64,000 bases of DNA from positions 32,192-96,191 of the IMG/VR virus record IMGVR_UViG_3300046323_000360; one strand, given 5' to 3'. Numbering within the stretch: the stretch's first letter is position 1; every line of letters starts with the position of its first letter. A program made the position numbers and the translations under genes. This document shows, in pieces, positions 29,822 to 56,083 of the stretch. The notes beneath the pieces are model-generated. The model was not told the origin of the DNA. It saw only the letters and a program-made list of their open reading frames with translations, and did not search any database. This stretch comes from a virus.

Positions 29822-29854
29822 TTTGTTACGGTACTACGTTGTGTTGTAAGTTTA

Positions 29855-32338: not shown

Positions 32339-32422
32339 ACCTACACCATACACCAACTGGCTCTAAGTATTTATTTTTTCTGAGCAGGTCGGCAGGGCAA
32401 GTCGGCGAGCGCCAGACTCAAT

Positions 32423-32650
32423 GCTAGGCAGGGTTACGGCAGGGGCTAGGGTTTAGGGCTTCTAGGGGCTAGTCGGCAAAGGGCTAGGGGCTAGGCAGGG
32501 CTAGGCAGAGTCTTCTAGGGGCTAGGCAGGGCTAGGCGAGTAAATACCTAGTCTGAGCCGTGTAGGGCTTCTAGGGGCTTCTAGGGGCTTCTACGGCAAT
32601 AACCCTAGTGAATGGCTATTGGCAGGGCTAGGCAGGGCTAGGCAGGGTAA
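32423..32650 (+). repeat. degenerate G-rich tandem repeats (GGCAGGGCTA / CTTCTAGGGG units)
   Basis: Many consecutive ~10-bp units in a gene-free stretch. Confidence 0.8.
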
Positions 32651-32702
32651 AAGAAAACCGCCTAACCCCAAAGGGCTAGGCGGTCTCGAGAGCCGTGTAG
32701 GG

Positions 32703-32969
32703 CTAGCAGTCCAAGTCTTGAAGACTTGCCAACTTCATACCAATAAGGTCTAGGAAGTCCGCATACTTCGCAGTGTGTGGGGCTTGACGAACAGCGTCAG
32801 CACGGTCACGCAGAGCGTAGCGGATAGCCGAAACTTCATCATCGCTGAAGTGGTTCAGCAAGTCTGAAGTCGCATCGGCAACAACCATAACGGTTCCGAA
32901 GTCATTAGTAACAACTGGAATAGGCACGATAAATCCCCTTTCAGGATTATGAAGTCCGATTGACTTCAT
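32703..32969 (-). CDS. hypothetical cassette protein (leaderless)
   Basis: TTGCGA-N17-TATGAT-N6-ATG at 32969. Confidence 0.7.
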   Translation of the reverse strand: MKSIGLHNPERGFIVPIPVVTNDFGTVMVVADATSDLLNHFSDDEVSAIRYALRDRADAVRQAPHTAKYADFLDLIGMKLASLQDLDC

Positions 32970-32975
32970 ACCTAA

Positions 32976-33004
32976 ATCATACAGCAACTAATCAGCAATC
33001 GCAA
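32976..33004 (-). promoter_or_regulatory. sigma-A-type promoter, example of the cassette promoter class
   Basis: TTGCGA-17 nt-TATGAT with extended TG; the same layout (TTGCG(A/C), often TGTCG in the spacer, TAnnnT) recurs ~18-30 nt downstream of the 17-bp motif. Confidence 0.75.
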
Positions 33005-33115
33005 ATCGAGCGAATAGGGTCAGGGCCATTTGCCAGAAAAAATAAATACATCAACCGGCGAGCGCCGGCAAGCGCACAAACTTGAGCCGTGTGCCAGTCC
33101 ACGCCAGCGGAAACG

Positions 33116-33146
33116 CAAAAAGCCCCCTGCCTTTCGGCAAGGGGCT
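33116..33146 (-). terminator. intrinsic terminator, example of the cassette terminators
   Basis: AGCCCC-TGCC-TTTC-GGCA-AGGGGCT hairpin with an A-run on +, i.e. U-tract on -; similar hairpins follow nearly every cassette gene. Confidence 0.75.
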
Positions 33147-33160
33147 TCGGGGGTTTGTGT

Positions 33161-33511
33161 CTAGCGGAACAAGTTCACAATCACCGAAAAGCGAGTGCGC
33201 TTCTTGCTCTGGTCAATCAGCGGAACAATCGCCGACACAAGGTCAGGGTAGGTTGCGGTTAGGGCTTCAACGAAATCGGCTTCGTTGAATGTGGCACGCT
33301 CACGCCAGTCACGGCGAGCAACTTCAACATTGTGGTGAACCAGCAAATCGCTGTCACCAAAAGCCGTGTTGATGGCCTTGTCCAACTGCTTCTTTTCGGC
33401 TTCAAGGTCAGCAATCTGCTTCTTGACTTCGGCGAAACGCTTGACGGTTTCGACAATCTCACGGCTTGCCTTGCTTGCTACTGCGGTTGTTACTGCGGTC
33501 ATTGTGACCAC
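33161..33511 (-). CDS. coiled-coil hypothetical protein, paralog family A
   Basis: LLVHHNVEVARRDWRERATFN shared with 38410 and 45800 ORFs. Confidence 0.75.
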   Translation of the reverse strand: MVTMTAVTTAVASKASREIVETVKRFAEVKKQIADLEAEKKQLDKAINTAFGDSDLLVHHNVEVARRDWRERATFNEADFVEALTATYPDLVSAIVPLIDQSKKRTRFSVIVNLFR

Positions 33512-33722
33512 CCCTTTCGGGCTACTTATGTTTCACCCTTGCTTGATACTTCAAGCATACAGGGTTTCAACCAGAAGCGCAAATCGAAATGCCACGCAGG
33601 GGAAACTTCCAGAAAAAATAAATACATCAGCCCTGCCCGCCAACTCGCCTGCGAGAAGTGAGCCGTGTAGGGTAAAAGAAAACCCCCTAGCCTTTCGGCT
33701 AAGGGGTTACTGGGGGCTACAC

Positions 33723-33911
33723 CTATTCGGCGTAGTTGAAGCGCTTGTCCAGCAACTCTGGAGCAAACGCCTCAAGAATGTTGGCAATCTCGCTAATGCG
33801 AGTTAGGCGAGCGTCAGGGCGCTCGTCATCGCTAGAGCCGTTGAAGCCTTCGGCTTCGACAGCGTCCATTAGCGTCGAACACTCGACGGCTAGAGCCTTT
33901 AGGTTAGACAT
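33723..33911 (-). CDS. hypothetical cassette protein
   Basis: GAAAGGGG RBS, own promoter and terminator. Confidence 0.7.
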   Translation of the reverse strand: MSNLKALAVECSTLMDAVEAEGFNGSSDDERPDARLTRISEIANILEAFAPELLDKRFNYAE

Positions 33912-34126
33912 TTGAAACCCCTTTCGCCAGAACCTTTCTGGCTTGATAAATCAAGCATAGCACTATCGGCAAACTCTCGCAACACGCACGCACCGACGCG
34001 GATCGTTTTTCAGAAAAAATAAATACATCATCTTCCCCGAACTTTGAAGTTGTTCAGAAGTGAGCCGTGTTACGCAGAGCAAAGAAAAACCCCCAGCCTA
34101 ACGGCTAGGGGTCAAACTTTCTTGGG

Positions 34127-34306
34127 CTAGAACTCTACGCCCTCAGCGCCATAACGAACACGATAGGCGTGGATAGTCTCAGCGTTACGGCGAGCCTGAG
34201 CCTTGAACTCTTTAGCCTCTTGGAACTTATAGACGGCAATCAAGATACCAAAGGCTAGAACATTAGCCCCCACGATAAAGGCGATAACGGATACAAAAGT
34301 TAGCAT
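34127..34306 (-). CDS. small membrane protein (59 aa, below ORF-track cutoff)
   Basis: MLTFVSVIAFIVGANVLAFGILIAVYKF...; start overlaps previous stop. Confidence 0.6.
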   Translation of the reverse strand: MLTFVSVIAFIVGANVLAFGILIAVYKFQEAKEFKAQARRNAETIHAYRVRYGAEGVEF

Positions 34307-34503
34307 TACTTTTCACCCCCATTGCCATAGGCAAATAAGCCAACTAGAAAACCAACAAAACCTAATGACGCAAAGAACGCAGGAACAAATAGCAACTCGA
34401 AAGTCTGCACTGAGCCGTGTTTGATTGCGTCACCTAGCCAGATAAGTATTGCCCCAAAAAACATTACGGCTACGAAGTTCGCAACCTTTACCTTGAAGTT
34501 CAT
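34306..34503 (-). CDS. small two-helix membrane protein
   Basis: Likely start MNFKVKV after GAAAGGGAG RBS. Confidence 0.65.
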   Translation of the reverse strand: MNFKVKVANFVAVMFFGAILIWLGDAIKHGSVQTFELLFVPAFFASLGFVGFLVGLFAYGNGGEK

Positions 34504-34697
34504 TACTCCCTTTCCCTCAAGCAACTCTTGCTTGATACATCTAGCATACACCTTGCCTACGACAAAAGCAAACTCTGAAGTAAGCCGTGTATAGGGTTTT
34601 ACATAAAAAATAAATACACTCGGGCGACCTGCGATTTCGCCAAACTCGGCAAACAAAAAACCCGCCACTAGGGCGGGTTAGTTGTTGAGTTGTTGGG

Positions 34698-34904
34698 TTA
34701 GAAAAGTTTGCCTTTTCCAGTGAAGAAAGTGAATACGACTGCGCCAGCGATACCGAAAGTGAATCCATTATTCCACGCTTCGGCAATACCGAAACTAGCA
34801 CCAGCACCAAGTCCGATTAGCAATGCACAAAGAACTACATAAGCAAGAGCAATGGCAGGAACTAGAACAATACTTGCTACTGCTCGGCGGATTACATACT
34901 TCAT
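34698..34904 (-). CDS. small membrane protein
   Basis: Likely start MKYVIRR after AAAAGAGGG RBS. Confidence 0.65.
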   Translation of the reverse strand: MKYVIRRAVASIVLVPAIALAYVVLCALLIGLGAGASFGIAEAWNNGFTFGIAGAVVFTFFTGKGKLF

Positions 34905-35121
34905 TTTTTCCCTCTTTTCAGTTGGAACTTTTCCAACTAACTCAATGCTACACCAACTGAAAAACTTTCGCAACTTCAAGTGAGCCGTGTAGTAGTAGTT
35001 GGCGGAAAAAATAAATACACGAACAACAAAAGAAAAAACTGAAGTCACTCGCGGCGACTCCAGCCCAGACAAAAGAAAAGAGGGCTAATCAGTTTCCTGA
35101 CTAACCCTCTCGCCTCACGAA

Positions 35122-35352
35122 CTAGTGGCTCTTGCTGAACCCTAGGCAATCCTCGTTACCGCACTCGCACTGCTCGACTCCGTGTAACTGCTCTGAGCAA
35201 CCCTCGGCAGAACATACCTGCCCGAAGTCCAACTCTACGCACCCATACCAGCCTGCGTAACTTGCGTGGCTCTTTGCGTGAAAGTCTGAACAAAAGTATT
35301 CAGCCTCGACTACATCGCCCTTAGTGTCCTCGATAAGAACTGCGTTAGCCAT
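35122..35352 (-). CDS. Cys-rich hypothetical protein
   Basis: GAGGGGAG RBS; several CxxxxC/CxC motifs. Confidence 0.6.
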   Translation of the reverse strand: MANAVLIEDTKGDVVEAEYFCSDFHAKSHASYAGWYGCVELDFGQVCSAEGCSEQLHGVEQCECGNEDCLGFSKSH

Positions 35353-35566
35353 AATGACCAACTCCCCTCTATTTAGTTTCCAACTCAAGCCCCTCGGCTT
35401 GATACATCTAGCCTAACACGACCCTCTGACTTTTCGCTTGACTCTCGCCGTGTCCTAGTCCAACTTGCAGAAAAAATAAATACAGCCGCCGGCGACAACT
35501 TTGAAATAAAAATAAGAAAAAGAAAACCCCCGCCTTTCGACGGGGGTTCGCTGGTTTATTTGTTTG

Positions 35567-35836
35567 TTAGCGGTTTAGGTTTGAGAGGTTGAAGTGTTCA
35601 ACCATAGAGAGTTCATACTCTGCCCATTCTTTGGCTTCGGCTTCGGCTTGCTCGATAGTTGTCACGCCATACACCGTGCGAATGTCCACTACATCAAAGA
35701 AGATACCTGCGTAGTGCGCTGGCTTGAACCACTGAAAAGTTGCTGACCCGTTCCAAGTAATGAAAAACTCGTTCTCGCTGTCTGCGTAAATAATCGCCCC
35801 GTTGTCCTTGACGATGTCATAAATCTTATTGCTCAC
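35567..35836 (-). CDS. hypothetical cassette protein
   Basis: GAAAGGGG RBS, promoter and terminator. Confidence 0.7.
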   Translation of the reverse strand: MSNKIYDIVKDNGAIIYADSENEFFITWNGSATFQWFKPAHYAGIFFDVVDIRTVYGVTTIEQAEAEAKEWAEYELSMVEHFNLSNLNR

Positions 35837-36021
35837 TTGTTGCCCCTTTCAACCAGACTTTCTGGCTATGTCTATAGCCTACCCTACTCCCACGACATTT
35901 GCCACCCCACCCCGGCGCGGTTACCAGAAAAAATAAATACACTAACCACCATCAAGAAAAACCAAACAAGCAAAAAGAAACCCCGTGTTTCCACGGGGTA
36001 TCTCCGAATACTTTTTAGTTG

Positions 36022-36279
36022 TTAGAAAACCAACTCTGGCAACTCAAACACTTCACGCAACTTTGCTTCCAACTTGTTTAGGTTGCTCTCGGCTTTCTCG
36101 AATGAACCCCAAACATAGTTTGTAGTTAGACGCTGGATTTCTGCGTTGCGAGCGCACTCTGCCCAAACCATAGCGATAGTCATTTCACTCTGGTAATAGG
36201 CTTTCAAGTCGCCACCAACCAACTTGCGAACGATAGCAAACGCCGTGTCTTGGTTTTGCTTGATAGTCAAATCAGTCAT
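36022..36279 (-). CDS. hypothetical cassette protein
   Basis: GAAAGGG RBS, promoter and terminator. Confidence 0.7.
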   Translation of the reverse strand: MTDLTIKQNQDTAFAIVRKLVGGDLKAYYQSEMTIAMVWAECARNAEIQRLTTNYVWGSFEKAESNLNKLEAKLREVFELPELVF

Positions 36280-36472
36280 TTGTCTTTCCCTTTCTCAAGC
36301 CCCTTGCTTGATAGTTCAAGCATACACCACCCCTTCGACAAAACAAGTATTCTTATTGCGTTGTTGCGTCACCTGGCAGAAAAAATAAATACAGATAGAC
36401 ACAACAAAAAAGCAAAGATAAACGGGCAAAGAAAAAACCCCGTGTTATCCACGGGGCTTCAACTTCAAACTA

Positions 36473-36640
36473 TTAGCGAATAGTCAATACGCCCTTGCTA
36501 TCAAGTTCAACTTCCAAGTCAAAGTGCGTTGCGTTTTCAACGACCTTGATTTGGTTGCCAACTGATAAGCGACCTACCAAGATACCTGCTCCCAAAATAC
36601 CGAAACAAATAATGGCAAAAGCCAATCCTGCGTAATCCAT
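36473..36640 (-). CDS. small membrane-anchored protein (55 aa)
   Basis: MDYAGLAFAIICFGILGAGILVGRLSVGN...; start overlaps upstream stop. Confidence 0.6.
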   Translation of the reverse strand: MDYAGLAFAIICFGILGAGILVGRLSVGNQIKVVENATHFDLEVELDSKGVLTIR

Positions 36641-36807
36641 TATGCCCACTCCCTTAGTGCGTTAGTCTTGCGAGCCAATCGAGTATTGGCACGCTTTGTT
36701 GCTTTGTTGCCGTGAACGCCACTTGCGTTCGAGCGTGAACGCTCACGCAAGATTACGGCGAGCGCCTTGCTCTCTGCCTTGCGTCTTGCTTCGTTAGCCT
36801 TGTTCAT
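36640..36807 (-). CDS. small basic protein (55 aa)
   Basis: MNKANEARRK...RSRSNASGVHGNKATKRANTR; GAAAGGGG RBS. Confidence 0.6.
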   Translation of the reverse strand: MNKANEARRKAESKALAVILRERSRSNASGVHGNKATKRANTRLARKTNALREWA

Positions 36808-36977
36808 CTTGAACCCCTTTCATCTGGCTTATTCCAAGCCTACCACACCCCTACGACAAAGCAACTTATGACTGCACCGTGTGTAGGGTTATTGACAGAA
36901 AAAATAAATACACCAAACCCCTACAACTTTCGGGCAAAAGAAAACCCCCGCCGAAGCGGGGGCTTGCTTGCTGGGGG

Positions 36978-37145
36978 CTAGAGCCGAGGGTCGTGTTCGC
37001 TCATCTCTGACGGCTTTGGATAATAACCCTCGGTAACCTCCCAAGGGAAGTCTGGCGTTGGGTCGTAGCAGCTCTCGCAAACGCTATCGCTTTCGCTAAT
37101 CTCGGCTTTGCAGTATCGGCAAATCTCTGTTTCGTTGTTTGACAT
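36978..37145 (-). CDS. small Zn-ribbon acidic protein (55 aa)
   Basis: CRYC...CESC; GAAAGGTAGGG RBS. Confidence 0.55.
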   Translation of the reverse strand: MSNNETEICRYCKAEISESDSVCESCYDPTPDFPWEVTEGYYPKPSEMSEHDPRL

Positions 37146-37289
37146 TTCCCTACCTTTCTTTCTTGGTTACTACCAAGTTACACCATCTGACCAACAAAGT
37201 CAAATCGAAGTTCCGTGTTGGGGTTTATTGGCAGAAAAAATAAATACATACAGGGGTCGAGAAAAAAGGCGGGTTTCCCCGCCCTTTCC

Positions 37290-37652
37290 CTAGTTGCTTG
37301 CGTAAGCCAACACTGCTTGCTCTGTCGCCTTGAGAAACGCTTCAACATCAGACTCGCTGAGTGGAAGTTCATTGCCCTCGTCATCTGTCTTGTTCGATAC
37401 CAAAACAACATCGCCCAAGATAACATCTGTCTTGCCGTATGACGCTTCCCAAATAGCGGTGGCAATGTCGTTGAATGGGAGTCCAATCAACTTGCCCTCG
37501 TCGTGAATGTAAAGTGCCAAGCCCTTAAACGCTCCACGCAACGCAATGTGCTGGATAGTTCCGCCTACTGCTTCACGAATGTCCTTGTAAGCAATCTCTG
37601 GCATCTCTACCAAGTCCAAGTCCGTTGTGATACGAACACCTGCTACAGCCAT
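37290..37652 (-). CDS. DUF3846-like protein
   Basis: AVGGTIQ...YIHDEGKLIGLPFNDIAT...DVILGDVVL. Confidence 0.8.
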   Translation of the reverse strand: MAVAGVRITTDLDLVEMPEIAYKDIREAVGGTIQHIALRGAFKGLALYIHDEGKLIGLPFNDIATAIWEASYGKTDVILGDVVLVSNKTDDEGNELPLSESDVEAFLKATEQAVLAYASN

Positions 37653-37850
37653 TTCTGACCCCTCTCGTAGCCCTCCGCAACTTGCTTCCTGACTACATAA
37701 GTAGTCTACTCAATCCCTACGACTTTCGCTTGACTCGACTACCCGTGTGTGCGTTAGTTACATAAAAAATAAATACATAAGATAGCCCGTAACTTTCAGA
37801 CAAAAAGAAACGCCCTGCCTTTCGGCAGAGCGTCCTTTGGTGGTTGAGGT

Positions 37851-38216
37851 TTATTCGTCCTCGTCCTCGTCGTCGTCGTCGTTACAGACACCAGCGCAAC
37901 CAGCCTCACCGCAGTCCTCGCACTCGTCCTCGTCAAACTGTCCGATTAGAGTGGTGAAGCCGTCGTTAGGGTCAGCCAAGTTTGTAGCCACGGCACTCAC
38001 GAAACGAAGTGAGCAAGACTGGTCAAACCATTTCTTGACAGTTTCAAGCATTTCGATCGACGACATCTCACTAGCCGTGATGATTGGGTCATACTCATAC
38101 TTACGCATAAGTTCAACTTGCTCGTCATCCATAAGAACATAAATCTTGTGGCAAGTGTCCCAGGTGATTGCCTTAGCGTCCTCTAGGTATTCCTCTACCT
38201 TGTCGAAGTTAGCCAT
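37851..38216 (-). CDS. acidic hypothetical protein
   Basis: Likely start MANFDKV; WDTCHKIY...WFDQSCSLRFV; Asp/Glu tail. Confidence 0.7.
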   Translation of the reverse strand: MANFDKVEEYLEDAKAITWDTCHKIYVLMDDEQVELMRKYEYDPIITASEMSSIEMLETVKKWFDQSCSLRFVSAVATNLADPNDGFTTLIGQFDEDECEDCGEAGCAGVCNDDDDEDEDE

Positions 38217-38409
38217 TTCATTTCCCTTTCCTTGTATCAACTTTTGTTGATAACTCAATCTTACTCGTCTGCTATGACTTTCGCAAATCGTCGCCAACTG
38301 AGAGCCGTGTTTACAGAAAAAATAAATACACCTCCGGCACGCAACTTTTTTCATTTCCGGCAAACGCAAAAAACCCCGCCAACTTAGGCGGGGTATCTGC
38401 GACTAACTC

Positions 38410-38805
38410 TTACTTGTAGAGAGTTGTCAAGGTTGTGTAGATAGTCTGGCTCTGGGCTTCGGCAGTTGCCTCGGCAAGCATAGTGTCTAGGCTATCTGCC
38501 AACTCTGGGTGAGTGGCAACAACTAGGTTGGTGAACGCTACCTTGAAAGCGTCAAGGTTGAAGTTGGTGCGACTACGCCAATCCAAGCGAGCGACCTCGA
38601 TGTTGTGATGAATAAGAGTGTCGAACGCTGAAGTCTTAGCCGTGTCGTCTTTCTCAAACTCTTTCTCCAAGACAGCAACAACTTTCTTAGCCTGACCCTC
38701 TAGAGCCTTGACCTCGGCACGAATGTTTACAAGTTCCTTAACTTGCTCAACAACTACCTTGCTGACTTTCTTAGTGCGAACCTCGGTTGCGGTTGCGATA
38801 GACAT
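38410..38805 (-). CDS. coiled-coil hypothetical protein, paralog family A
   Basis: TLIHHNIEVARLDWRSRTNFN. Confidence 0.75.
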   Translation of the reverse strand: MSIATATEVRTKKVSKVVVEQVKELVNIRAEVKALEGQAKKVVAVLEKEFEKDDTAKTSAFDTLIHHNIEVARLDWRSRTNFNLDAFKVAFTNLVVATHPELADSLDTMLAEATAEAQSQTIYTTLTTLYK

Positions 38806-39017
38806 TTGTTCCCTTTCTATAATCTCTGGCATTTCCTTCGACTACCTAAGTAGTCTATACCCTATTTACGACATTTGCCAAACTCTGAGCCGTGTCGAGG
38901 GTAATACGCAGAAAAAATAAATACACTAACCGGCTGCCACCTTCAGCAAACTTTTGAATAAGAAAAAACCGCCTTAGTCGAAACTAAGACGGATTATCTT
39001 TTTGCTTGTGAGTTTGG

Positions 39018-39296
39018 TTACTGCCAGCGAACAACACGCTTACGGCTATTGCTAGGCGTAATGTGCCAAATAGCCTGCCTTGCCCAATGACCATTCGCAT
39101 AACGCATAGCGGTTGCGAAGTTGTCATAAGTCTTAGACGAACGCCCATTATCCCAAGCGAGTGTCAAGACAAACTTTCCCTTGACCTCACCCGTGTATGA
39201 ACGAACATCAACAATGTTTCCGCTGTAATCTTTTTCTTCGATTACTAATGCGCCCTCGACCTCACCTTTGGTGAAGTAATCTTTGTTGTAAATCAT
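39018..39296 (-). CDS. hypothetical cassette protein
   Basis: Likely start MIYNKD after GAAAGGG. Confidence 0.65.
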   Translation of the reverse strand: MIYNKDYFTKGEVEGALVIEEKDYSGNIVDVRSYTGEVKGKFVLTLAWDNGRSSKTYDNFATAMRYANGHWARQAIWHITPSNSRKRVVRWQ

Positions 39297-39480
39297 TTGT
39301 TTCCCTTTCTTATTGTCCCTTTCGGGCTTACCTAATAAGCCTAACATACTCTACGGCAAAGTCAAGTTCAGCCAGAGATAGTGGCAAAACTAGCAGAAAA
39401 AATAAATACACGCAGGTCGAAATAAAAAAATCAGCAAAAGAAAAACCCCTGCCAAAAGGCAGGGGCTTGTCCGTGTCTGA

Positions 39481-39669
39481 TTACCAGACACGAACTCCGT
39501 GAACGCTACCGCACTTACAGTGTGCCTGAGCGATACCGCCGTCAATCATCGCTGGGTCAATCTCTACATCAGCAGAGCAGACTGGGCAGGTGAAGAACTC
39601 TACAGTCTCGACTACACCGCCTAGGTAAGTTACCTCGCGAGTGCTTACTACTACATTTAGAAGTGCCAT
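39481..39669 (-). CDS. small Zn-ribbon protein
   Basis: CPVC...CKC; GAAAGGG RBS. Confidence 0.6.
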   Translation of the reverse strand: MALLNVVVSTREVTYLGGVVETVEFFTCPVCSADVEIDPAMIDGGIAQAHCKCGSVHGVRVW

Positions 39670-39841
39670 TTCTTTTCCCTTTCGTTGGCTTATGTAATAA
39701 GCATAGCATTGTTTTAGACTTTTTCAACTTTTATTATTTTCTTCTTTTTGATTAGCAGAAAAAATAAATACAAAAAAAAAAAAAAAAAAAAAAAAAGGCA
39801 AAAGAAAAACCTCGGGTTTCCCCGAGGCTTCCTTTCTGCCC

Positions 39842-40060
39842 TTAGGCTACTGACTTCTCCGTGTCAGCAATGGCTTCCTTTAGCCAAGCCAATGCTTCCT
39901 GACGACCCTTGACTCCGCGACCAAAAGTCTTATAAGCGTCAATACCCATTAGACGACCTAGTGACTTCATTGCTGGCTCGCGGGTCATTTGAAACTTACC
40001 CTCCGACTTAATCTCGGCTTCTAGTCCAATGACTAGCAACTTCGCCTGTAGTAGGTTCAC
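39842..40060 (-). CDS. hypothetical cassette protein
   Basis: GAAAGGGGTAGG RBS. Confidence 0.65.
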   Translation of the reverse strand: MNLLQAKLLVIGLEAEIKSEGKFQMTREPAMKSLGRLMGIDAYKTFGRGVKGRQEALAWLKEAIADTEKSVA

Positions 40061-40253
40061 GACCTACCCCTTTCACTTTTGTAACCCTGGTTGGTTACAT
40101 ACCAACTATACACCTTTCCAAAGACTTTTTCAACTTCTTTTATTTTTTCTTTGGCCACCATAAAAAATAAATACAGCTCAGCCGTGTTAGTTATTTCGGG
40201 CAAAAAGAAAACCGGCTGAACATTTCTGTTCAACCGGCTGACTTCGGATTAGG

Positions 40254-41183: not shown

Positions 41184-41192
41184 GTCTAAAAA

Positions 41193-47912: not shown

Positions 47913-48267
47913 CGTCCTCGCCGTCCTCGTCAATGAACACAATCTCAAGTTTGGTAACGCGCTCGCCCCAGCCGTCAATCTCGCGCAAGGTAGCATACAC
48001 AGGATAGTATCCGTCACCCAAGCCTGTCCGTGAAACTACACCCGCGCCTGCCGTTCCACCGTCAAACTCCAACTGACCGATAGGGTGCTTGTGCTCCGCT
48101 AATGTAGTAGCGCACGCCCCGCCGTATGAGTAGTGTCCAATGTAACCCTCGCCGTAGCCCTCTTTGCCCCAGCCGTCGAGGTAGCCAGGGTCGGTAATCA
48201 AAATCTGTCCGCTATCAACCGCGCAATAGCCGATACAAACTGTCCGTTCCGTGTATGTGTTAGCCAC
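47902..48267 (-). CDS. DUF4241-like protein
   Basis: IGYCAVDSGQILITDP...TGLGDGYYPVYA. Confidence 0.7.
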   Translation of the reverse strand: MANTYTERTVCIGYCAVDSGQILITDPGYLDGWGKEGYGEGYIGHYSYGGACATTLAEHKHPIGQLEFDGGTAGAGVVSRTGLGDGYYPVYATLREIDGWGERVTKLEIVFIDEDGEDDEA

Positions 48268-48269
48268 GC

Positions 48270-48401
48270 CTACGCCTTTCCTTGTAGTGCTAGTGCGAAC
48301 CAATCTTCGAACGCCGTGTCGCAATCCTCGCATAAAGGGTGAACCGCGCCGACAGGTGCTTCAATCTCCGTGTCGCACTTATAGCAAGTTGTCTGTTCCA
48401 T
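48270..48401 (-). CDS. small Zn-ribbon protein (43 aa)
   Basis: CYKC...CEDC; fills the gap in a short operon. Confidence 0.5.
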   Translation of the reverse strand: MEQTTCYKCDTEIEAPVGAVHPLCEDCDTAFEDWFALALQGKA

Positions 48402-48405
48402 AGTT

Positions 48406-48690
48406 CTAACTTACCACTAAGTCGGCGTATTCGTCAAGTGCTTCTGGCGTGTCTGGAATGGTGTGTCCAGCCATACGAAATCCAGCCTCGATGATTAGGC
48501 TGTGTGGTTCAAAACCTAAGGCGTGTGCCACAATCTCAAGAAACTCTGACGAGATTTCCTTTTTGCCACGCTCAACTTCTGACAGATAGCCAAGAGCAAT
48601 AAAGCCTTTGTCTGACAAGTCGCGCAACACCATTCCACGACTTAGGCGTGTTTCGCGTAGCACTTCGCCAAGAGCGTCTTTGAATAGCAT
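48406..48690 (-). CDS. ClgR-like XRE-family transcription regulator
   Basis: LGEVLRETR...LRDLS...LGYLSEVERGKKEISSEFL closely follows the actinobacterial ClgR pattern. Confidence 0.82.
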   Translation of the reverse strand: MLFKDALGEVLRETRLSRGMVLRDLSDKGFIALGYLSEVERGKKEISSEFLEIVAHALGFEPHSLIIEAGFRMAGHTIPDTPEALDEYADLVVS

Positions 48691-48885
48691 TTAGTGTTCC
48701 TCTCCTTTTCGTGTTTCGTATCAAAACTCTACCAGCAACCTATGACATTCTCCAACTTCGTATTAGCGTGTTCAAAAGTTAGCAGAAAAAATAAATACAT
48801 TCGTGTTCCCCTGAAAATAGAGAAGTCGCCAACGAACCCGAGGGGGGGGGTTCGCTGACGACCTCGTGTGTCTGACCTCTGGGGG

Positions 48886-49275
48886 TTAGATAGTCAGAAC
48901 CTTAGGTGACACCTTGCTTGGTGGTAGCAAGAATGTAGCAAGCATTTCTGGGTGGTTCTTGGTGATGAAGTCCAGCATAGCCTTAGCGTCATACTTAGGC
49001 GTGTCAGAGGGCTTATCGTAACGAACCTTGACAAGACGCTTGCCCCTTGCGTCTGTGCCAATGACAGTAACGCCAAAGTCAAGTTCGCCCAGAACAATCT
49101 CACGAGCAGACTTGATGTTAGCGTCAATCTCTTTTTCGAGTAGGTGTGCCTGTGCCAAAGCCTTTACAGCCTTTTGCGCCTTAGGCGTGATTACGACCAG
49201 AGTTTCCTCGGTGGTCGCAGTGAGGTCGCTAGTAGCAACCTTAGCGGTGGTGCTTGGTTTTGTTTTAGTAGCCAT
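48886..49275 (-). CDS. hypothetical protein, distant member of family A (leaderless)
   Basis: TTGCGA-N17-TAAGGT-N7-ATG at 49275; Thr/Ala-rich N-terminus, YDAKAML..NHPEM tail. Confidence 0.65.
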   Translation of the reverse strand: MATKTKPSTTAKVATSDLTATTEETLVVITPKAQKAVKALAQAHLLEKEIDANIKSAREIVLGELDFGVTVIGTDARGKRLVKVRYDKPSDTPKYDAKAMLDFITKNHPEMLATFLLPPSKVSPKVLTI

Positions 49276-49388
49276 ACCTAAAACCTTAGCAGGTTGTTTC
49301 GACATTCGCAACTCCTCGCAGAAAAAAGTCAGAAAAAATAAATACACGCTGGGGGAAAAGAAAACCCAGACTTTCGTCTGGGCGTTTC

Positions 49389-49601
49389 TTACCAGAAAAC
49401 TGGAATAGGTTTTTTCTCTGTGTCAATGGATAGGACTTTCCAAGAGTCCACTCCCCAGAGCAATCCGAGTTCTGAACCGTTGTCCCACTTGACGCGTAGA
49501 ACGCGTCCCCAAATGTCATTGGTTTCGCTGACAACAGTTCCCAAATCACCGGGCTTCAAATCCGTGTGCTTGTCCGTTGTGTGTAGTAGTTGGATACGCA
49601 T
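49389..49601 (-). CDS. DUF4314-like protein
   Basis: LKPGDLGTV...VKWDNGSELGLLWGVDSW. Confidence 0.75.
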   Translation of the reverse strand: MRIQLLHTTDKHTDLKPGDLGTVVSETNDIWGRVLRVKWDNGSELGLLWGVDSWKVLSIDTEKKPIPVFW

Positions 49602-49605
49602 TGCT

Positions 49606-49869
49606 CTACTCCTCTTCGTCTGTGTAGTGTGCGTCAATCTCTGTAAGCGAGCCGAGTTCATAACTGTCGCAGTAGTAGCACTCGCCGTCACTATCCGCTG
49701 GCATTGGGTGGTTGTTATCTACGAACCACGCCGCCCACTCTGATAGGTCATACTCACGCACCGATTCAATGTATTCATCAAAGTGGTCGTCCAAGCCAGC
49801 CGTGTCAATAATGGTAATACCCTCGGCACTGCCCCACGAGCCGTCCTCGGCAAAAAACATCTTAGCCAT
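49606..49869 (-). CDS. acidic hypothetical protein
   Basis: FFAEDGSWGSAEG.. motif; GGAGGAG RBS. Confidence 0.65.
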   Translation of the reverse strand: MAKMFFAEDGSWGSAEGITIIDTAGLDDHFDEYIESVREYDLSEWAAWFVDNNHPMPADSDGECYYCDSYELGSLTEIDAHYTDEEE

Positions 49870-49978
49870 TAGTGGTTCTCCTCCGCATCGCAACCTTGGT
49901 CAAAGCACTCTTCGCAATAGCCGTTTCCCAGCAAGCCGTCCGTAACCGAACAGGCTTGGCACTTACATTCTTTTTCCA

Positions 49979-50203
49979 TTAGAAAACCATTTCTCCTAGA
50001 ACCTTGCCGATACGAATGCGAGCCTCGTTGAGAATGGCATACTCGTCACTGTCCTCGCCAATGATGTCAGCGACAATCGGCATAGCCTGTTCAATCGCAT
50101 ACTCGGCTGTTTCAGTTGGCACTTCTAGGTCTGACTCGGCTTCAGCAATCTTGGCAATCAAGCCAGACAGAAGCAAAACATCTTCTTTCAAATCCCGTTC
50201 CAT
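49979..50203 (-). CDS. acidic helical hypothetical protein
   Basis: GAAAGGA RBS. Confidence 0.65.
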   Translation of the reverse strand: MERDLKEDVLLLSGLIAKIAEAESDLEVPTETAEYAIEQAMPIVADIIGEDSDEYAILNEARIRIGKVLGEMVF

Positions 50204-50544
50204 TTGTGTCCTTTCTTTGGGGTCTTATCAAGTTAGCAGTTTATTGAGTTGTTGTCAAATCATTAGTCATAATCATCATAAAAAATAAATACATAGTCAT
50301 AAGGTGGAAAAGCCACAGGGAAGTTTTCTGGTTAGCGTTCGCGCTTTGGACAAGTCCAGTCGGCTACTGACATTCAGGTTATCCCTGTGGCTGTTCCGTG
50401 TTTAGCGACACTGCTGTCGGTTTTCCTAGCAAAATGGTCAGTTTCTAAGCATAGTAGCGGAGTCTAGAACACTCCTACACCGCAACTGATTTACAGCGTC
50501 CCTCGGGGCAATCCGTGCTAGGGAAGTCTTTATTTAGTTCTAGG

Positions 50545-51537
50545 TTACACGCTTGCCGTTTCTGTGTCAAGTGGCTTCTCCTCATTACAGAATACGCAGG
50601 AGAACCCGACCTGCTGGGTCGTGCCGTCCACTAGTTTGCTTAGAGGCACAAACTTGTGTTCGCAGACTTTGACTTTAGGCTCGCCGTCATTCAGCGTAGG
50701 GAACAAACGCTCGCCGTTTTCATTGGTAACAAAAATCGCCGTGTTGTCCTCTTGTAGTTCCATTTGCTCGTCAGGGTCATTGTCCTGTGCGAGTTCCCAA
50801 GCGTTCTCTGCCGTGTTGGTGCGAACCTTGTAGGTCTTGGTGACAACTACATAGAAGTCCTGCTCTGGGCGTGGGCAGTCCTCATACCAGTCGTCTTGGT
50901 CGTCAGAGTGTTCGCAGGGACACTCGCGGTCACGCGCAACATAGTCGGCGTGGCAATCAGGAATGTCCCACTCCTCCGTGGTAATCAGAGAACGCTCGCC
51001 CTCGTCGCCGTCAGACGAAGTAAACTTCACGCCCCAGCCCTGTTCCTCCTCGCACTCAAAGTCGAAGTCCAGAGTCGGGTGCTGTTCGACCATAGCCACG
51101 AAGACAGGTTCAGGAACAGACCACGCAGTTTCAAAAGTAATGTTGGCAGAGGCGTTGCCCTTGTCGTCCTTACTGATTTCGACATTCGGGCTACCAGCGT
51201 CCCACTTAGTTCCCCACTCACGAATGTTCCAGTCATACCAGCCATTGCCAGTAAACTTCAGGTCAAACGCAAACTGCTCCTCTTTAGTCCAGCCCTCGTA
51301 TTCATCTGGCTTCTTGCCGTGTGCGTCTGCGAAGTAGGCTTCCTTGTCCTCTGGCTCAATGAAGTTCCAGAATGAGAATGGGCTTTCGTTCATAGCGTCC
51401 TTGGTTTCATTCTCCTTGGTTTCGGAGTTCCAAGTGGTGTGCTTGGTTGGGTATTGCTTCCCAGCCTTTTCCACGAACGCAGTAATGTCTGCTTCTGTTC
51501 CAGACACTCCTACATAGTTGTAAACCCAGTTTGGCAT
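50545..51537 (-). CDS. DUF1281/Api92-like ferredoxin-fold protein
   Basis: MPNWVYN...WYDWNIREWGTKWDA...FETAWSVP. Confidence 0.75.
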   Translation of the reverse strand: MPNWVYNYVGVSGTEADITAFVEKAGKQYPTKHTTWNSETKENETKDAMNESPFSFWNFIEPEDKEAYFADAHGKKPDEYEGWTKEEQFAFDLKFTGNGWYDWNIREWGTKWDAGSPNVEISKDDKGNASANITFETAWSVPEPVFVAMVEQHPTLDFDFECEEEQGWGVKFTSSDGDEGERSLITTEEWDIPDCHADYVARDRECPCEHSDDQDDWYEDCPRPEQDFYVVVTKTYKVRTNTAENAWELAQDNDPDEQMELQEDNTAIFVTNENGERLFPTLNDGEPKVKVCEHKFVPLSKLVDGTTQQVGFSCVFCNEEKPLDTETASV

Positions 51538-51796
51538 TTGATTTCCTTTCGTTGCCTTAGTTCAGGATAGCATACCTTCAATCAACAAGCAACTACTAAT
51601 CAAAAGTTTTCTCTTTCTTTTTTTCAGAAAAAATAAATACTCCCCTCGAAAATACCGGGCGAAGCGAAACCCCCGACCAGTGAAAGGAGTTGGTCAGGGG
51701 TTTCTAATCTGGTGGTCAGTAGCACTTCATTGGGCTATGCGCGGAGAAAGGAACGGAACAACACCGCGCCCTGACCACCAGACTTCTTGGGGCTAG

Positions 51797-53659
51797 TTAG
51801 AAACCAGCCGTTGCTTTTTCCAGAGCCTCGCTCGCTGACTTTCCAATCAGGGTCGCAATGTTGCTTGGCTCTAGTCCGTCAAGCAGAACCGCGTGAGTTC
51901 CCTTGATAATCTCACGAGCGTTCCAACGCTCGCCGTGAACCTTGTCTGGGCTAATCCAGAGAACAGCCACGCCGTTCTTTTCGCAAGCCTTGACAGCCTG
52001 ACGCGCGTTCTCGGTTTCAACATCTGTATAACAGCCGTCCGATACGACAACCAACATACGCGCACCGCGTCCGTAGAGCAGGTCAAGTGTGCCGTCCAGA
52101 GCCGAGAAACCCTTGCCAAACTTTTCTGTGCCGTCCGTTGCCGAATAGACGCGAACCTCGTCCAACTTCTGTCCGACCTTTAGAGTGGCGAACACATCAT
52201 TGCCGTAATAGACCATAGCGGTCTTGGCTTGAATACGCTTGCCAGCCTCACCAAGAACCCACGCCGTAGTTGCCATAGGGTTCATAGCCGAACCCATAGA
52301 ACCGCTAATGTCCACCATTACGCCGATAGACAGAGTTGGCTCGTCCGTGTGCTTGCGAACCTTGTGTTCCCACGCAGGGTTCTTGCTCATAATGCCCTTG
52401 CTCTCTAATGCCTTGTTCTGAACAAGAGCGCGAGAACGCAGACGACCTGCTGGCAGTTCCGAGCGAATAATCGTCAAGTCGCGCTCGCGGTATTTTGCCT
52501 TGTCCAACATCTGCGCGACTTTGACAGAGGCAATGCGCTCTGCCGAAGTTGGCTTGCGAACCTCGACCAAGCGAGAGCCAGAGCGAGAGGAGGGCATAGT
52601 GGTCGTGCCTTTGCTATCGCCATTGCTCTGCTCAAAAACTTCTTGGGCAGTTGCCTTGTTAGAACGAATAATCTTTTGGGTCTTGGCGCGTTCTTTGGTT
52701 TCCTTATCCCAATCCTCTTGGGTCTGCTGGTCGCCCAGAGCGTTGCCAGTTGCGATAGCAGTTTCCATTGCGTCCTCTGCCAGAGCCTCAATGAGTTCGA
52801 CAATAAAGTTGCCCTCGCCCTCGCCCTCGCCCTCGCCAGAACCAGAGCCAGCGATAACAAAGCCACCCTCGCCCTCGCCAGTTTCCTCGCCCTGTTCCTC
52901 GGCGCGTTCCTTTAGCAGTTCGACCCACTTGGTAGCCAGCGCAATGCCAGCCTCTAGGTCGCCTGTCTTGTGGCAAACGAGAGCCTGAAAGTCAATCCAG
53001 ATTTCGCGCAACTTGGCAACTAGGTCTGGGCTAAGAACCTCAAGAACCTTTTGCTCAACAAGCAGAATGTCGCTTGTTTCAAGAACGCCAGCGTCCACGC
53101 GAGCCAAAGACAATCCTGCTAGGTGAGCAGTTGCGAAAGTCTTGGTCATTTTTTCAAGGTCGCCCTCGCTAAGGTCGCCCAGAGCAAGTTGTAGAGCAGA
53201 GGCGCGTAGGAACAACTTGTTCTCTGGCATACCCTTTGCCCCTAGACCCTCAATGCGACTTTCCTCCAAGAGCATAAAAGCGTCAATGACCTGCTTGTCT
53301 TGAGTCAGAGTTTCAAGATACTCAATGTTCCAAGTGGTGTGCTTGGCGTGTAGTGCCTCGTGATAGATAACCCCTGTTGCTTGTGGAAACTCAAACTGCT
53401 GGTCGCGCTCGCGGAGGTCGCCAACCATTGTTGGCGTAGTTGCCTTGCCAAAGGCAATAGGCAAGTTGATTTCGATTTCGGCGGTATCGCGGTAAAATGC
53501 GGCGAGTGCCTCTCCATTTACAGCGTCAATGCCAGCGTAAACAACTAGGTCAGTTCGACCTGCCCAATCGTTTGCGACCTGTCCAATCTGGGCGCAGGTG
53601 TGTAACCATTCGCGCGGAGTTTCGCTTTTGCGTTCCGCAATCCTTGAGTAGTGAGCCAT
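51797..53659 (-). CDS. vWA-domain protein with N-terminal HExxH domain (CobT/MoxR-partner type)
   Basis: YHEALH...LEESRIE; MIDAS VDISGSM and VVSDG. Confidence 0.85.
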   Translation of the reverse strand: MAHYSRIAERKSETPREWLHTCAQIGQVANDWAGRTDLVVYAGIDAVNGEALAAFYRDTAEIEINLPIAFGKATTPTMVGDLRERDQQFEFPQATGVIYHEALHAKHTTWNIEYLETLTQDKQVIDAFMLLEESRIEGLGAKGMPENKLFLRASALQLALGDLSEGDLEKMTKTFATAHLAGLSLARVDAGVLETSDILLVEQKVLEVLSPDLVAKLREIWIDFQALVCHKTGDLEAGIALATKWVELLKERAEEQGEETGEGEGGFVIAGSGSGEGEGEGEGNFIVELIEALAEDAMETAIATGNALGDQQTQEDWDKETKERAKTQKIIRSNKATAQEVFEQSNGDSKGTTTMPSSRSGSRLVEVRKPTSAERIASVKVAQMLDKAKYRERDLTIIRSELPAGRLRSRALVQNKALESKGIMSKNPAWEHKVRKHTDEPTLSIGVMVDISGSMGSAMNPMATTAWVLGEAGKRIQAKTAMVYYGNDVFATLKVGQKLDEVRVYSATDGTEKFGKGFSALDGTLDLLYGRGARMLVVVSDGCYTDVETENARQAVKACEKNGVAVLWISPDKVHGERWNAREIIKGTHAVLLDGLEPSNIATLIGKSASEALEKATAGF

Positions 53660-53791
53660 TTCCGTTCCTTTCGTTTATGGCTTGTATTTTGTTGTAGTCC
53701 TAGTAAAGCAGTTTTTGGAGAGCGTGTCAAGTTGATTTTGAAAAAAGTTTTTTGACACGCTCTCCCTGCTTTAGCGAAAGGACGAGAAACG

Positions 53792-54808
53792 CTAAATCTT
53801 TGCTGGCTTGACTTCCTCACCAAAGACGCGAGTGAAAACATCTGCCACTACTGGGCGGTCATTTTCAGGCGCACCTGCGAGCAAGTTAGCAACAGCCCAC
53901 TTAGTTCCAAAGGTCTTGGAAAGGTCGCGGAAAGCAAGTAGTTCGCGCATTTGTGGCGACCAAGAAACCTCACCCGAAACCTGCTTCTTAGACAAGTTCT
54001 GGCTGGCAGTAATCATTGGGGCAGATACACCCAACTTCTTAGCCAATCCCCAATCAGTAGTCATTTCGACCTGAATGGTGAAACGCGATAGCAGAGCCTC
54101 TGACAAGCGAACCCCAGGTGCGTTTGGGTTAGTTGCGCCAACAACATAAAAGCCCTCTTTGGCTTTGATAGTTCCGCGCTCTGGGTTCTGGGTAATGGTC
54201 AGTTCACCGCGTCCGTCCATAAGACCATAGACAGCAGACATAACCTTTGGGTCAATCAGACCAACCTCGTCAATCAAGAGAGGACGACCCTGCTCAACAG
54301 CGCGAACCAATGCGCCGTCAATCCACTCAAAGCCACCAGACGGAGTTTGAACATAGCCACCAATGAAGTCTGAAAGTTCGGTGTCGCCAGAGCCAATAAT
54401 GGTTTCTAGTTCGTCACCAAAAGCACCCTCAACGAGAGCAGTTTTTCCACAGCCCGGTGCGCCATAGAGCAAAACAAACTGGTGAGCCTCACGCGCTTTG
54501 CGTAGAACCTCAATGTCGGTGTGTTCGCCCCAACCACGCGAGTAGTAGTCGTGACCATTCGGGCGAGCATACTTCTCTGCGCCCTTGAGTGCGTCTGTTT
54601 CCACTTTTGCCTTGTCTGCTTGTTTGTGGGTCGTTGGCTCTCCACCCCTATTACGAAGTGTAGCACGACCAGCAGTAGGCATAAGGCTGTCAAGTCCAGC
54701 AGGAACAGCAGTAGGGTCAAGTTGCTGAATAGCAACTCCATAGACCAGAGCCGAAAGGTCTGGGTAGAGAGCGTCAATGTCGTTCTCGACAGGGGCAATA
54801 CTTGTCAT
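53792..54808 (-). CDS. MoxR/CbbQ-family AAA+ ATPase
   Basis: GAPGCGKT, LLIDEV, ATNP, LSEALLSRF. Confidence 0.9.
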   Translation of the reverse strand: MTSIAPVENDIDALYPDLSALVYGVAIQQLDPTAVPAGLDSLMPTAGRATLRNRGGEPTTHKQADKAKVETDALKGAEKYARPNGHDYYSRGWGEHTDIEVLRKAREAHQFVLLYGAPGCGKTALVEGAFGDELETIIGSGDTELSDFIGGYVQTPSGGFEWIDGALVRAVEQGRPLLIDEVGLIDPKVMSAVYGLMDGRGELTITQNPERGTIKAKEGFYVVGATNPNAPGVRLSEALLSRFTIQVEMTTDWGLAKKLGVSAPMITASQNLSKKQVSGEVSWSPQMRELLAFRDLSKTFGTKWAVANLLAGAPENDRPVVADVFTRVFGEEVKPAKI

Positions 54809-54850
54809 TTTGTTTTCGTCCTTAGTTAGTTGGTTTGTTGCTATAAGTGA

Positions 54851-55312
54851 TTATAGCACTTTTTCTGGAAAGTTCAAAGCGACACGCGCTTTCTGGATAC
54901 GGCGTAGCAGAGCAGACGGAGTTTTCCAATCCTTGACTTCTGCTAGGTCAATGGTGCTTACCTCGGCAACAATAGGTGTCTTGCGAAGTTCCATTTCGTA
55001 GGCAATCTGACGCTTGATAACGCTCTCAATCTGGGCAACCATTTCGACAGCCTTTTCCTGTGCTGTGGTCTGCGCGATAGGCGTTCCAAAAAGTTCCTTG
55101 TTGTTCACGCGAGAAAGCGAGATACGCCATTGCTTACGAGGCGACCAATCGCTCACGGTGCGAGAGTGAACAGCCATTGGAACATAGTTGGCACTCTCGT
55201 CAAAACCCTCTGGTGTTACGAGGATTTGGGTAACAACATTCTGACCTGCCTCTTTGGTGGTCTTTGGCACTAACTCAATGTAGATAGCCTTGCCAACAAT
55301 CTTGTCTGTCAT
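54851..55312 (-). CDS. hypothetical protein
   Basis: 153-aa ORF with AAGGA RBS, heads the MoxR operon. Confidence 0.7.
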   Translation of the reverse strand: MTDKIVGKAIYIELVPKTTKEAGQNVVTQILVTPEGFDESANYVPMAVHSRTVSDWSPRKQWRISLSRVNNKELFGTPIAQTTAQEKAVEMVAQIESVIKRQIAYEMELRKTPIVAEVSTIDLAEVKDWKTPSALLRRIQKARVALNFPEKVL

Positions 55313-55433
55313 TTCTTTTCGTCCTTAGTTCGATTTGTTTGTTTTGGTATTCAGTTGTAGTTATGACTTTACTCGCTTATTTTGAAGTTGTCAAGTCTTA
55401 TTACGAAGTTTTTTATAACGAAATGGTAACGCT

Positions 55434-55964
55434 CTAATAGTGTAGGTCTACGGGAATGAGATACTGCTTTGCTGGGTTGGTCTTTACACGCTCAACGAAA
55501 GAGCGTAGGTTCGCTGTCCAATCAGTTAGGTCATAGATAGCAGTATCTGGTGTCCACTCATCATCAAGTAGTTGTGCCAACTTCTTAGTTCCATACAAGT
55601 CCATGTCCCAAGTTTTCGTGTATGGGTCATAGGCGTATGTAGATAGGTCAATCGCTTTTGACTTGTAGTTGCGAATCTCATCTAGGCGTTGCTGGAGAAA
55701 CTTCTCAATAACAAGTTCGGCGAGCGCAGGCTCGTCTGCGTAGCAGAGGTGGTTAGCAATCTCTGCGTCTGGGTCTGGCTCGCCATTTTTGTTAGGAGTA
55801 AAGAACACAGCGTTAGACCAGCGACCTGCAAAGTCTTTCGTGTGTGCGCCAGAGGCTTCGTGCCAATCTGACCAACTAGGGCTTTCAGACAGTGCGCCCT
55901 CTACTGCGTCAAATGCTTCCTCTGGGCTATCTGCCTCAACGAGCATAATCTGACATACGTGCAT
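55434..55964 (-). CDS. conserved phage hypothetical protein
   Basis: MH..ILVEA...WSDW...GRW...YLIPVDLHY pattern. Confidence 0.7.
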   Translation of the reverse strand: MHVCQIMLVEADSPEEAFDAVEGALSESPSWSDWHEASGAHTKDFAGRWSNAVFFTPNKNGEPDPDAEIANHLCYADEPALAELVIEKFLQQRLDEIRNYKSKAIDLSTYAYDPYTKTWDMDLYGTKKLAQLLDDEWTPDTAIYDLTDWTANLRSFVERVKTNPAKQYLIPVDLHY

Positions 55965-56083
55965 TTGGGTCGTCCTTTCGTATTTGGATACAACAAGAAC
56001 ATTACCCTATTTAGTTGTTCAATGCAACTCGTGTTGCGGTGTGTCAGAAAAAATAAATACAGTATTGGCTCGTATTTATTTTT

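Follow-up and report, generated by a model that had tools for sequence, protein, structure and literature searches.

The stretch of viral DNA analysed here (64,000 nucleotides, hereafter the window) is the final 64 kb of a viral contig of 96,191 bp in total, IMG/VR record IMGVR_UViG_3300046323_000360. It contains a block (positions 32036-56116) in which ten of the 16 four-base palindromes, namely AATT, ACGT, AGCT, ATAT, CATG, GATC, GGCC, GTAC, TGCA and TTAA, are almost completely missing. About 36 promoter-gene-terminator cassettes, arrayed in one direction, make up the block, which is located upstream of the genes for lysis and terminase in a siphoviral actinophage. The observation is confirmed and generalises to the clade of this virus, and restriction avoidance is well supported as the cause of the purge. 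Comparison between related sequences suggests a confinement of this avoidance to the DNA that is first exposed in the infected cell as the best-supported mechanism.

The ten words together occur at 29 sites in the block, as compared to 30-60 per kb in its flanks, and a second-order Markov model predicts 40-105 occurrences for each of them. Ranking of all 256 tetramers places exactly these ten palindromes lowest (observed/expected 0-0.13), followed by CACA (0.39). Among the other palindromes, CTAG is found at expectation, TCGA, CGCG and GCGC at 0.6-0.7, and CCGG and TATA at about 0.45. Counted per 500 bp, there are 0-4 sites within the block and 12-36 outside, with zero across 46596-55601; no second interval of this kind exists in the 96-kb contig. 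The original prediction, made by eye for positions 32400-56045, is reproduced without any change on recounting, with GATC at 3, AGCT at 3, GGCC at 4, CATG at 2, ACGT at 2, TTAA at 3, TGCA at 12 and CCGG at 17, and with no GTAC, AATT or ATAT. The words that it described as still common are so (CTAG 117, TCGA 67, GCGC 81, CGCG 76). It had named a Markov model and a codon correction as a check, and the depletion persists under both: a synonymous-codon shuffle of the 42 credible open reading frames (ORFs) of the block displays 470±18 expected sites, where 15 are seen. Hence, the purge is not an artefact of codon usage or composition. The non-coding DNA of the block (9.1 kb) holds only 14 sites of the ten words.

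Depletion extends to degenerate words, with observed and expected counts of 2 and 63 for GGNCC, 2 and 63 for GGNNCC, 14 and 110 for GCNGC, 12 and 63 for CCNGG, and 6 and 47 for GCWGC; CCWGG and GGWCC are avoided too. The asymmetric words CCTTC (8 of 41 expected) and GTCTC (3 of 28) are depleted, as is GTCAAC (0 of 20), and 6-bp palindromes are affected as a class (1.7 vs. 14.5 per kb). Nine of the ten purged tetramers, along with GCWGC, CCWGG, GGWCC, GGNNCC, GTYRAC, GTCTC and CCTTC, are what we take to be sites of known enzymes, and nearly all avoided words are presumably Type II or Type IIS recognition sequences. We know of no enzyme for ATAT, which is yet fully purged in the block, and of none for TATA.

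Nine related IMG/VR genomes of 54-154 kb (G001-G009; the present genome is G000) were read whole, and each of them carries a purged block of 13.7-31 kb in the equivalent place. IMG/VR holds 88 loci with a large terminase (TerL) 76-91% identical to the one in the window; among those long enough to be profiled, the ten words become scarcer in about 20, a few kb to the upstream side of TerL, and abruptly so in about 10. A further 70 loci were anchored on the gene of an AAA+ ATPase in the block (AAA gene); 25 of these are without a purge, and 45 have 1-14 purged words, most often ACGT (33 loci), TTAA (33), ATAT (32), GGCC (30) and GTAC (30). CTAG is purged in no locus examined. The purged set differs by lineage and comprises from 2 to 14 of the 16 words: in G002 and G005 14 words are nearly missing from the block and CTAG and TATA alone persist, AATT is retained in G003 and G007, CATG is retained in G001, G006 and G007, and in G008 and G009 the purge concerns mainly ACGT, ATAT, CATG, GTAC, TGCA and TTAA. 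A second tier of avoidance covers whole genomes. GATC is absent throughout G002, G003, G004 and G007 (zero in the 154 kb of the latter), and CCGG throughout G004, G006 and G007. The lake metagenome actinophage DSL-LC01 (OQ999401; 129,469 bp) has no ATAT and no TTAA anywhere, and displays no regional purge.

The borders of the block are sharp at both ends, within about 100-500 bp. According to the original prediction they coincide with inverted copies of a 16-mer, GTATTTATTTTTTC, that is repeated in the block. This is correct for the right (distal, upstream) border, where a pair of copies at 56045-56085 is followed by the first site at 56117, but not for the left (proximal) border, as the purge continues for 330 bp past the copy at 32367-32383 and ends at 32036, inside the second of two small membrane-protein ORFs. 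Ten of ten genomes have the distal border on the upstream side of the AAA gene, at a distance of 0.75-2.0 kb, and the purged AAA-anchored loci have it there at 0.6-2.2 kb. In at least six genomes the border directly follows a gene for a small Zn-ribbon protein, homologues of which adjoin the upstream end of the block in at least G003-G008. The proximal border is variable, at 3-8 kb from TerL, and the block length varies. Repeat-rich non-coding DNA is present at the proximal border of G000, G004 and G008, and none is evident in G001.

In G003 the purge runs through TerL and 1 kb past it. The ten words occur at 6 sites in the TerL gene of G003 (82% amino acid identity), three of them AATT, a word that stays unpurged in this lineage; the median for 77 other orthologues is 45 (range 30-64). 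It is thus location that has led to the recoding of this late gene, which was inherited vertically, and this rules out a foreign origin as well as any explanation by the function of early genes, and together with the fixed distal border argues for a physical domain that is measured from this border. A recent import of foreign DNA, or an assembly chimera with recombination junctions as borders, would be in line with the shift in composition of the block relative to the remainder (CpG 1.6x, AAA 2x) and with its gene content, which is hypervariable among relatives. We consider this explanation highly improbable in view of the recoded TerL, of the presence of the sequence in four sequencing runs with contigs that bridge the right border, and of the syntenic purge in dozens of independent assemblies, each with its own word set.

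We hypothesize, with a probability of roughly 0.6, that the block is an early arm of the genome, scrubbed of sites, which enters the cell first and naked, that entry makes a stop at the proximal border as in phage T5, and that products of the block protect the rest. This arm would serve host takeover with about 45 genes, all but one on one strand, most of which form cassettes of their own behind putative housekeeping-type promoters that the host RNA polymerase may read at once. In the virion the genome would be linear, the distal border (about 56.1 kb) being the end that leads; it would enter from there in the direction of transcription, and would halt at or near the repeat-rich non-coding DNA of the proximal border (about 32.0-32.7 kb), like in the first-step transfer (FST) of T5. 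The block would be scrubbed because it is the sole part of the genome lying naked in the cytoplasm before any phage-made protection. Its products would neutralise the majority of host nucleases or make entry safe for the remaining DNA, and sites elsewhere would then be tolerated; a few nucleases that resist neutralisation may account for the words absent genome-wide in relatives.

One cut kills an infecting genome, and hundreds of sites outside the block are tolerated, which implies that this outside DNA is inaccessible while the nucleases are active. Delayed entry behind a first-expressed arm is the simplest route to such inaccessibility. We infer the order of entry, the signal to stop and the protective role of the block. 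The two tiers of avoidance would also fit: enzymes that are not neutralised would lead to genome-wide avoidance, and other enzymes to avoidance in the arm only. The proposal of unprotected, exposed DNA in the original prediction agrees with a purge that is specific for palindromes, affects non-coding as well as coding DNA, returns in relatives with word sets that depend on lineage, and is bound to position; the form of a long terminal repeat, which was offered along with it, is at odds with sequencing depth. In contigs of two runs the depth of the block is 45-47 against 57 in its neighbourhood (about 0.8x), which is no doubling, and a terminal repeat hence fails for this genome.

A T5-like two-step transfer would fit the sharp borders, the repeat-rich inner border, the co-directional genes and the fixed distal origin. 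This may tentatively be carried further, although we would rather bet against the full extension: two-step delivery might be used by uncultured siphoviruses of freshwater actinobacteria throughout a large clade, with the origin of the block as leading end and its 14-31 kb as the DNA before the stop. The first operon of the block (176-aa protein, MoxR-like ATPase, vWA protein), which is universally conserved, might then be the functional counterpart of A1 and A2 of T5 and release the stop or protect the rest, and the word lists might reflect the restriction repertoire of the hosts, including an ATAT nuclease.

Several findings weigh against the early-arm reading. The precedent claimed for T5, whose FST DNA was said to avoid restriction sites, stands only in that restriction is confined to sites in this DNA (PMC10644984); the DNA itself carries no general purge of palindromes, with 68 vs. 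63 four-base palindromes per kb. Homologues of the T5 pre-early proteins (A1, A2 and dmp among them) are missing, as tblastn of ten proteins against the contig displays a best E value of 0.014 over 51 aa, outside the block. About 40 block proteins were compared with Pfam and PHROGs, which revealed no member of a known anti-restriction family and no protective gene. In 1751 plasmids, leading regions are without consistent depletion of 4-8-bp palindromes (PMC13478746). T5, SPO1 and Pumpernickel have terminal repeats, whereas the block is present in one copy. The distal border is spanned by contigs from three runs, and four relatives (G001, G006-G008) assemble as circles, so that a fixed genome end is an assumption. 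Surviving sites, summed over ten genomes by fifths of the block from distal to proximal, amount to 24, 19, 50, 56 and 64; this gradient agrees with distal-first entry, but could equally result from faster turnover or recent gene gain in the variable part.

Depth and bridging were taken from assembled Logan contigs, which carry no read starts or ends. IMG/VR lists direct terminal repeats in four relatives (G001 and G006-G008), but these were rejected, as they are k-mer overlaps of 124-127 bp in assemblies that are circular. Upstream contig ends in 80 AAA-anchored loci do not clearly accumulate at the distal border (5 of 39 at 0.65-1.15 kb, where about 2 are expected). The Microbacterium phage Pumpernickel (NC_073468) has a linear GenBank record with a perfect direct terminal repeat of 19,963 bp, which carries 52 small genes including those of an endolysin and an Lsr2-like protein. 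Its physical left end is the start of this co-oriented 52-gene array, and its TerL starts at 27.2 kb, as compared to 27.0 kb from the distal border here. The Pumpernickel repeat displays no palindrome purge.

The same selection could act in the opposite geometry, with a genome end in the non-coding DNA ahead of the terminase genes (about 31.3-32.0 kb), a block that is packaged last and ejected first from its proximal side, and a halt at the distal border. A cos or pac site commonly directly precedes the small terminase gene. Non-coding DNA of 660 bp at 31237-31900, which holds a conserved segment (31438-31605), would be a candidate location, many IMG/VR contigs end 0-5 kb upstream of TerL, and the perfect inverted pair of 16-mers at the distal border could be a stop signal. 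However, it is the proximal border that varies, to the point of lying 1 kb past TerL in G003, whereas the distal border stays in place; the block is cleanest in its distal part; the physical end of Pumpernickel is the upstream end of its small-gene array; and a hypervariable, repeat-rich region would also yield contig breaks near the proximal border. This geometry appears unlikely to us.

The 16-mer occurs in 38 copies in the contig, all within 32367-56085, of which 36 are on the minus strand and one at each border is on the plus strand. Alignment of the 36 minus-strand copies displays a uniform order of elements: the terminator hairpin that closes the preceding gene, the 16-mer, an ACACGG box, a -35 element TTGCGA, about 17 nt, and a -10 element TAnnnT, followed by a 5'UTR hairpin, a Shine-Dalgarno sequence GAAAGGG and a small ORF. 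The consensus TTGCGA-N17-TAnnnT looks like a housekeeping actinobacterial promoter. Genes of the block are on the minus strand for 45 of 46 ORFs in G000, and 53 of 55 are co-directional in G002. The 16-mer is identical throughout each genome and varies among lineages (GTATTTATTTTTTC, GTATTCGTTTTTTC, GTATTCATTTTT.. and GTATTTATTTTTTG; window 33034-56085, and G001, G002, G004, G006, G007), and other lineages have a repeated element GTATCCACTTTT or TAGTTATTTTTT. In G002, 10 of 41 copies are inverted at an unchanged position between cassettes. Such inversion despite co-directional genes suggests that the 16-mer is orientation-independent, in the manner of a protein-binding site, and not a core promoter. 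Relatives without a purge keep the cassette arrays and have a repeated extended -10 element, TGATATAAT, which contains ATAT; purged lineages have TAnnnT variants free of ATAT, and avoidance has thus left its mark even on the promoter consensus.

Nine of the 24-29 surviving sites in 33024-46595 lie within 12 nt of a 16-mer, where 1.6-1.9 are expected (P<0.0003). The clustering is not reproduced in G001, G002 or G004, and as it is present in this genome only, we do not use it as evidence. Directly after one copy of the 16-mer there is a run of about 25 A (39772-39797), at which contigs of the sequencing runs break. Contigs from a freshwater metatranscriptome (X24), about 93-94% identical, span two cassettes of a relative (46073-46646 and 48881-49346); they hint at expression of the cassettes, and DNA carry-over is possible.

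The motif is also relevant for the possibility that the whole genome enters together, with the rest modified or coated by a co-injected DNA-binding protein and the arm left naked for the host RNA polymerase, and with the 16-mer as a mark of this domain. The restriction of the 16-mer to the block, with inverted copies at both borders, the clustering of survivors in this genome, and the annotation of methyltransferases, glycosyltransferases and a dioxygenase in DSL-LC01 would support such a model. On the other hand, the contig ORFs scanned contain no DNA-modification pathway, just an FkbM-type methyltransferase and a dCMP deaminase; no form of the motif was detected in G008 and G009 despite their purged blocks, and in G006 and G007 the distal-border copy alone is seen; survivors do not cluster in the three relatives named above; and a 24-kb unmodified domain matches no known system. 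We assign to this model the same low likelihood as to the opposite geometry.

The distal operon of the block encodes an acidic 176-aa protein, a 153-aa protein, a MoxR-like AAA+ ATPase and a vWA protein, and is followed by the gene of an acidic DUF1281_C protein. The 176-aa protein belongs to a conserved family of about 100 uncharacterised proteins with invariant W, D, R and H positions; its structure model is confident (pLDDT 92) and matches no solved fold (best E 1.5 in Foldseek against PDB; best Z 3.7 in VIA-align wide). The vWA protein is 46% identical to the product of a DSL-LC01 gene annotated as "cobalamin biosynthesis protein". The DUF1281_C protein is the sole block protein with a (weak) homologue inside the Pumpernickel terminal repeat. 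Other block genes encode DUF6011 and DUF3846 proteins and many orphans, and most are without assigned function. Features of the window are collected in the table below.

Table. Features of the block and its surroundings, in window coordinates.
Feature	Position	Strand	Remark
Tape measure	760-4056	minus	
Major capsid	9436-11409	minus	
Portal	24132-25901	minus	
Large terminase (TerL)	26601-29048	minus	815 aa
Late genes after the block: NlpC/P60 peptidase, HTH (Sigma70_r4) protein, TerL	26601-31237	minus	Site density normal
Two small membrane-protein ORFs, candidate holins	31945-32356	minus	Purge stops in the second
Purged block (ten 4-bp palindromes; several 5-6-bp and Type IIS sites)	32036-56116		
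Inverted 16-mer copy near the proximal border	32367-32383	plus	
CTAG-rich tandem repeats, non-coding, units GGGCTAGGCA and GGGCTTCTAG	32400-32700		Just within the proximal border
35 of 36 minus-strand GTATTTATTTTTTC copies	33034-51640	minus	One heading each cassette
SSB gene	43703-44086	minus	
HTH_3 (Xre-type) regulator	48406-48690	minus	
Very acidic 330-aa protein, DUF1281_C	50545-51537	minus	Net charge -45
vWA-domain partner of the ATPase	51797-53659	minus	Weak VWA_CoxE match
MoxR-like AAA+ ATPase (AAA_5)	53792-54808	minus	Landmark in all ten genomes
First block gene, 176 aa	55434-55964	minus	pI 4.5; no Pfam match
Distal (upstream) border, two inverted 16-mer copies	56045-56085		11 nt apart
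36th minus-strand GTATTTATTTTTTC copy	56047-56060	minus	
Small Zn-ribbon gene, 79 aa	56084-56323	minus	Last gene of normal site density; stop codon abuts the first motif

A block full of genes without assigned function could also encode early phage nucleases that cut host DNA at short palindromes, in which case the block, as the only phage DNA present at that time, would lack the sites to avoid cutting itself. Such a role has been proposed for T5 A1 in Davison's restriction-enzyme hypothesis (bioRxiv 10.1101/866236). Up to 14 words that differ among close lineages would require many phage nucleases, none of which is recognised; delayed entry of the remaining DNA would still be needed; and the genome-wide absence of GATC or CCGG points to host enzymes. 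We rate self-avoidance as less likely than either of the two models of genome delivery discussed above, and prefer avoidance of host restriction on the first-exposed arm.

Structural and packaging genes in the window identify the virus as a siphovirus, and the replication module is found in the part of the contig that precedes the window. The nearest named relative is DSL-LC01 (TerL 65%, capsid 73% identical), followed by Microbacterium phages of about 190 kb such as Pumpernickel (TerL 40%, capsid 55%); further named relatives are Gordonia and Mycobacterium phages, and all of these are actinophages. Megablast against the phage collection yields no close relative. Sequencing runs that hold at least half of the words of the stretch are all freshwater metagenomes, and the relatives suggest that the host is a freshwater actinobacterium. 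The contig ends inside a coding sequence with collagen-like (G-x-x) and Thr/Pro-rich repeats (G000:C1 1-100; window 63900-64000). Its 96 kb are far below the 125-154 kb of relatives, so that part of the genome is probably missing. Scanning of the window with Rfam and for tRNA genes gave no hits.

The HTH (Sigma70_r4) protein may be the small terminase. The conserved segment in the gap between block and lysis genes is 70-88% conserved in several relatives, where it is found beside their proximal border, and overlaps a possible 52-aa ORF on the plus strand (31464-31622). The 88 TerL orthologues align over only about 1.4 kb of the 815-aa TerL, which suggests an insertion of about 345 aa, probably an intein, and the inserted sequence also matches HNH, helicase and DarB-annotated genes of unrelated phages. 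The packaging class could not be read from TerL, whose many distant matches at residues 149-498 overlap this insertion and have mixed annotations.

The idea that selection by restriction acts mainly on first-injected DNA has so far rested on a few laboratory phages (T5 and relatives of T7). Here the footprint is unmistakable: a near-site-free island with kilobase-sharp limits, present clade-wide, with word sets that shift among close lineages. If the proposed entry order is true, sequence alone could locate the leading arm of uncultured phages, and perhaps the genome end and the stop. Avoidance in the block only, as opposed to avoidance genome-wide, could then rank host nucleases by the ability of phages to neutralise them, and the purged words could indicate restriction specificities of uncultured hosts. 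The conserved operon would be a candidate for the protective or transfer-resuming activity that is unidentified even in T5.

In T5 and BF23, Type I and Type II systems, CRISPR and other defences act solely on sites in FST DNA, and the border between first-step and second-step transfer DNA is a repeat-rich non-coding region (PMC10644984; bioRxiv 10.1101/866236). These phages resemble the block in having an arm of small early genes with a repeat-rich inner border, and the early protective products of T5 are still unidentified. The T5 arm differs in that it comprises 8-10 kb within a duplicated terminal repeat, has two divergent operons and is unpurged, whereas the block comprises 24 kb, is single-copy and co-directional, and has lost ten of 16 tetranucleotide palindromes. 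A study of Murciavirus in the Autographiviridae reports that only motifs in the first-injected region decide restriction sensitivity, and explicitly states that restriction is expected to select on this segment (PMC12455610). That study concerns one Type I motif in a region of a few kb, as compared to about 20 Type II-like specificities over 14-31 kb in actinobacterial siphoviruses here. The leading region of T7-like phages has early genes that are co-directional with entry and promoters for the host polymerase at the leading end, which the co-directional cassettes and the promoter-like consensus of the block may match; an Ocr-like protein was not recognised in the block, the first gene of which is acidic and conserved, with an unmatched fold.

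Pumpernickel is similar in that its dozens of small genes start at the physical end and are transcribed inward, upstream of terminase; its repeat is duplicated and unpurged, whereas the block is purged and unduplicated. Phage SPO1 carries its host-takeover genes in a long terminal repeat. The genome-wide avoidance of Type II palindromes in phages is matched by the second tier described above (GATC, CCGG, ATAT or TTAA absent in relatives), but the main signal here is regional, with sharp borders and a far broader set of words. Leading regions of conjugative plasmids are enriched in anti-defence genes and SSB, and the block likewise has an SSB gene; its depletion differs from theirs in being near total. 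Literature searches returned no earlier description of such a regional purge, nor a precedent for its magnitude. The principle is known, and what is new is the scale, the sharpness, the lineage-specific word sets and the two-tier structure of the avoidance.

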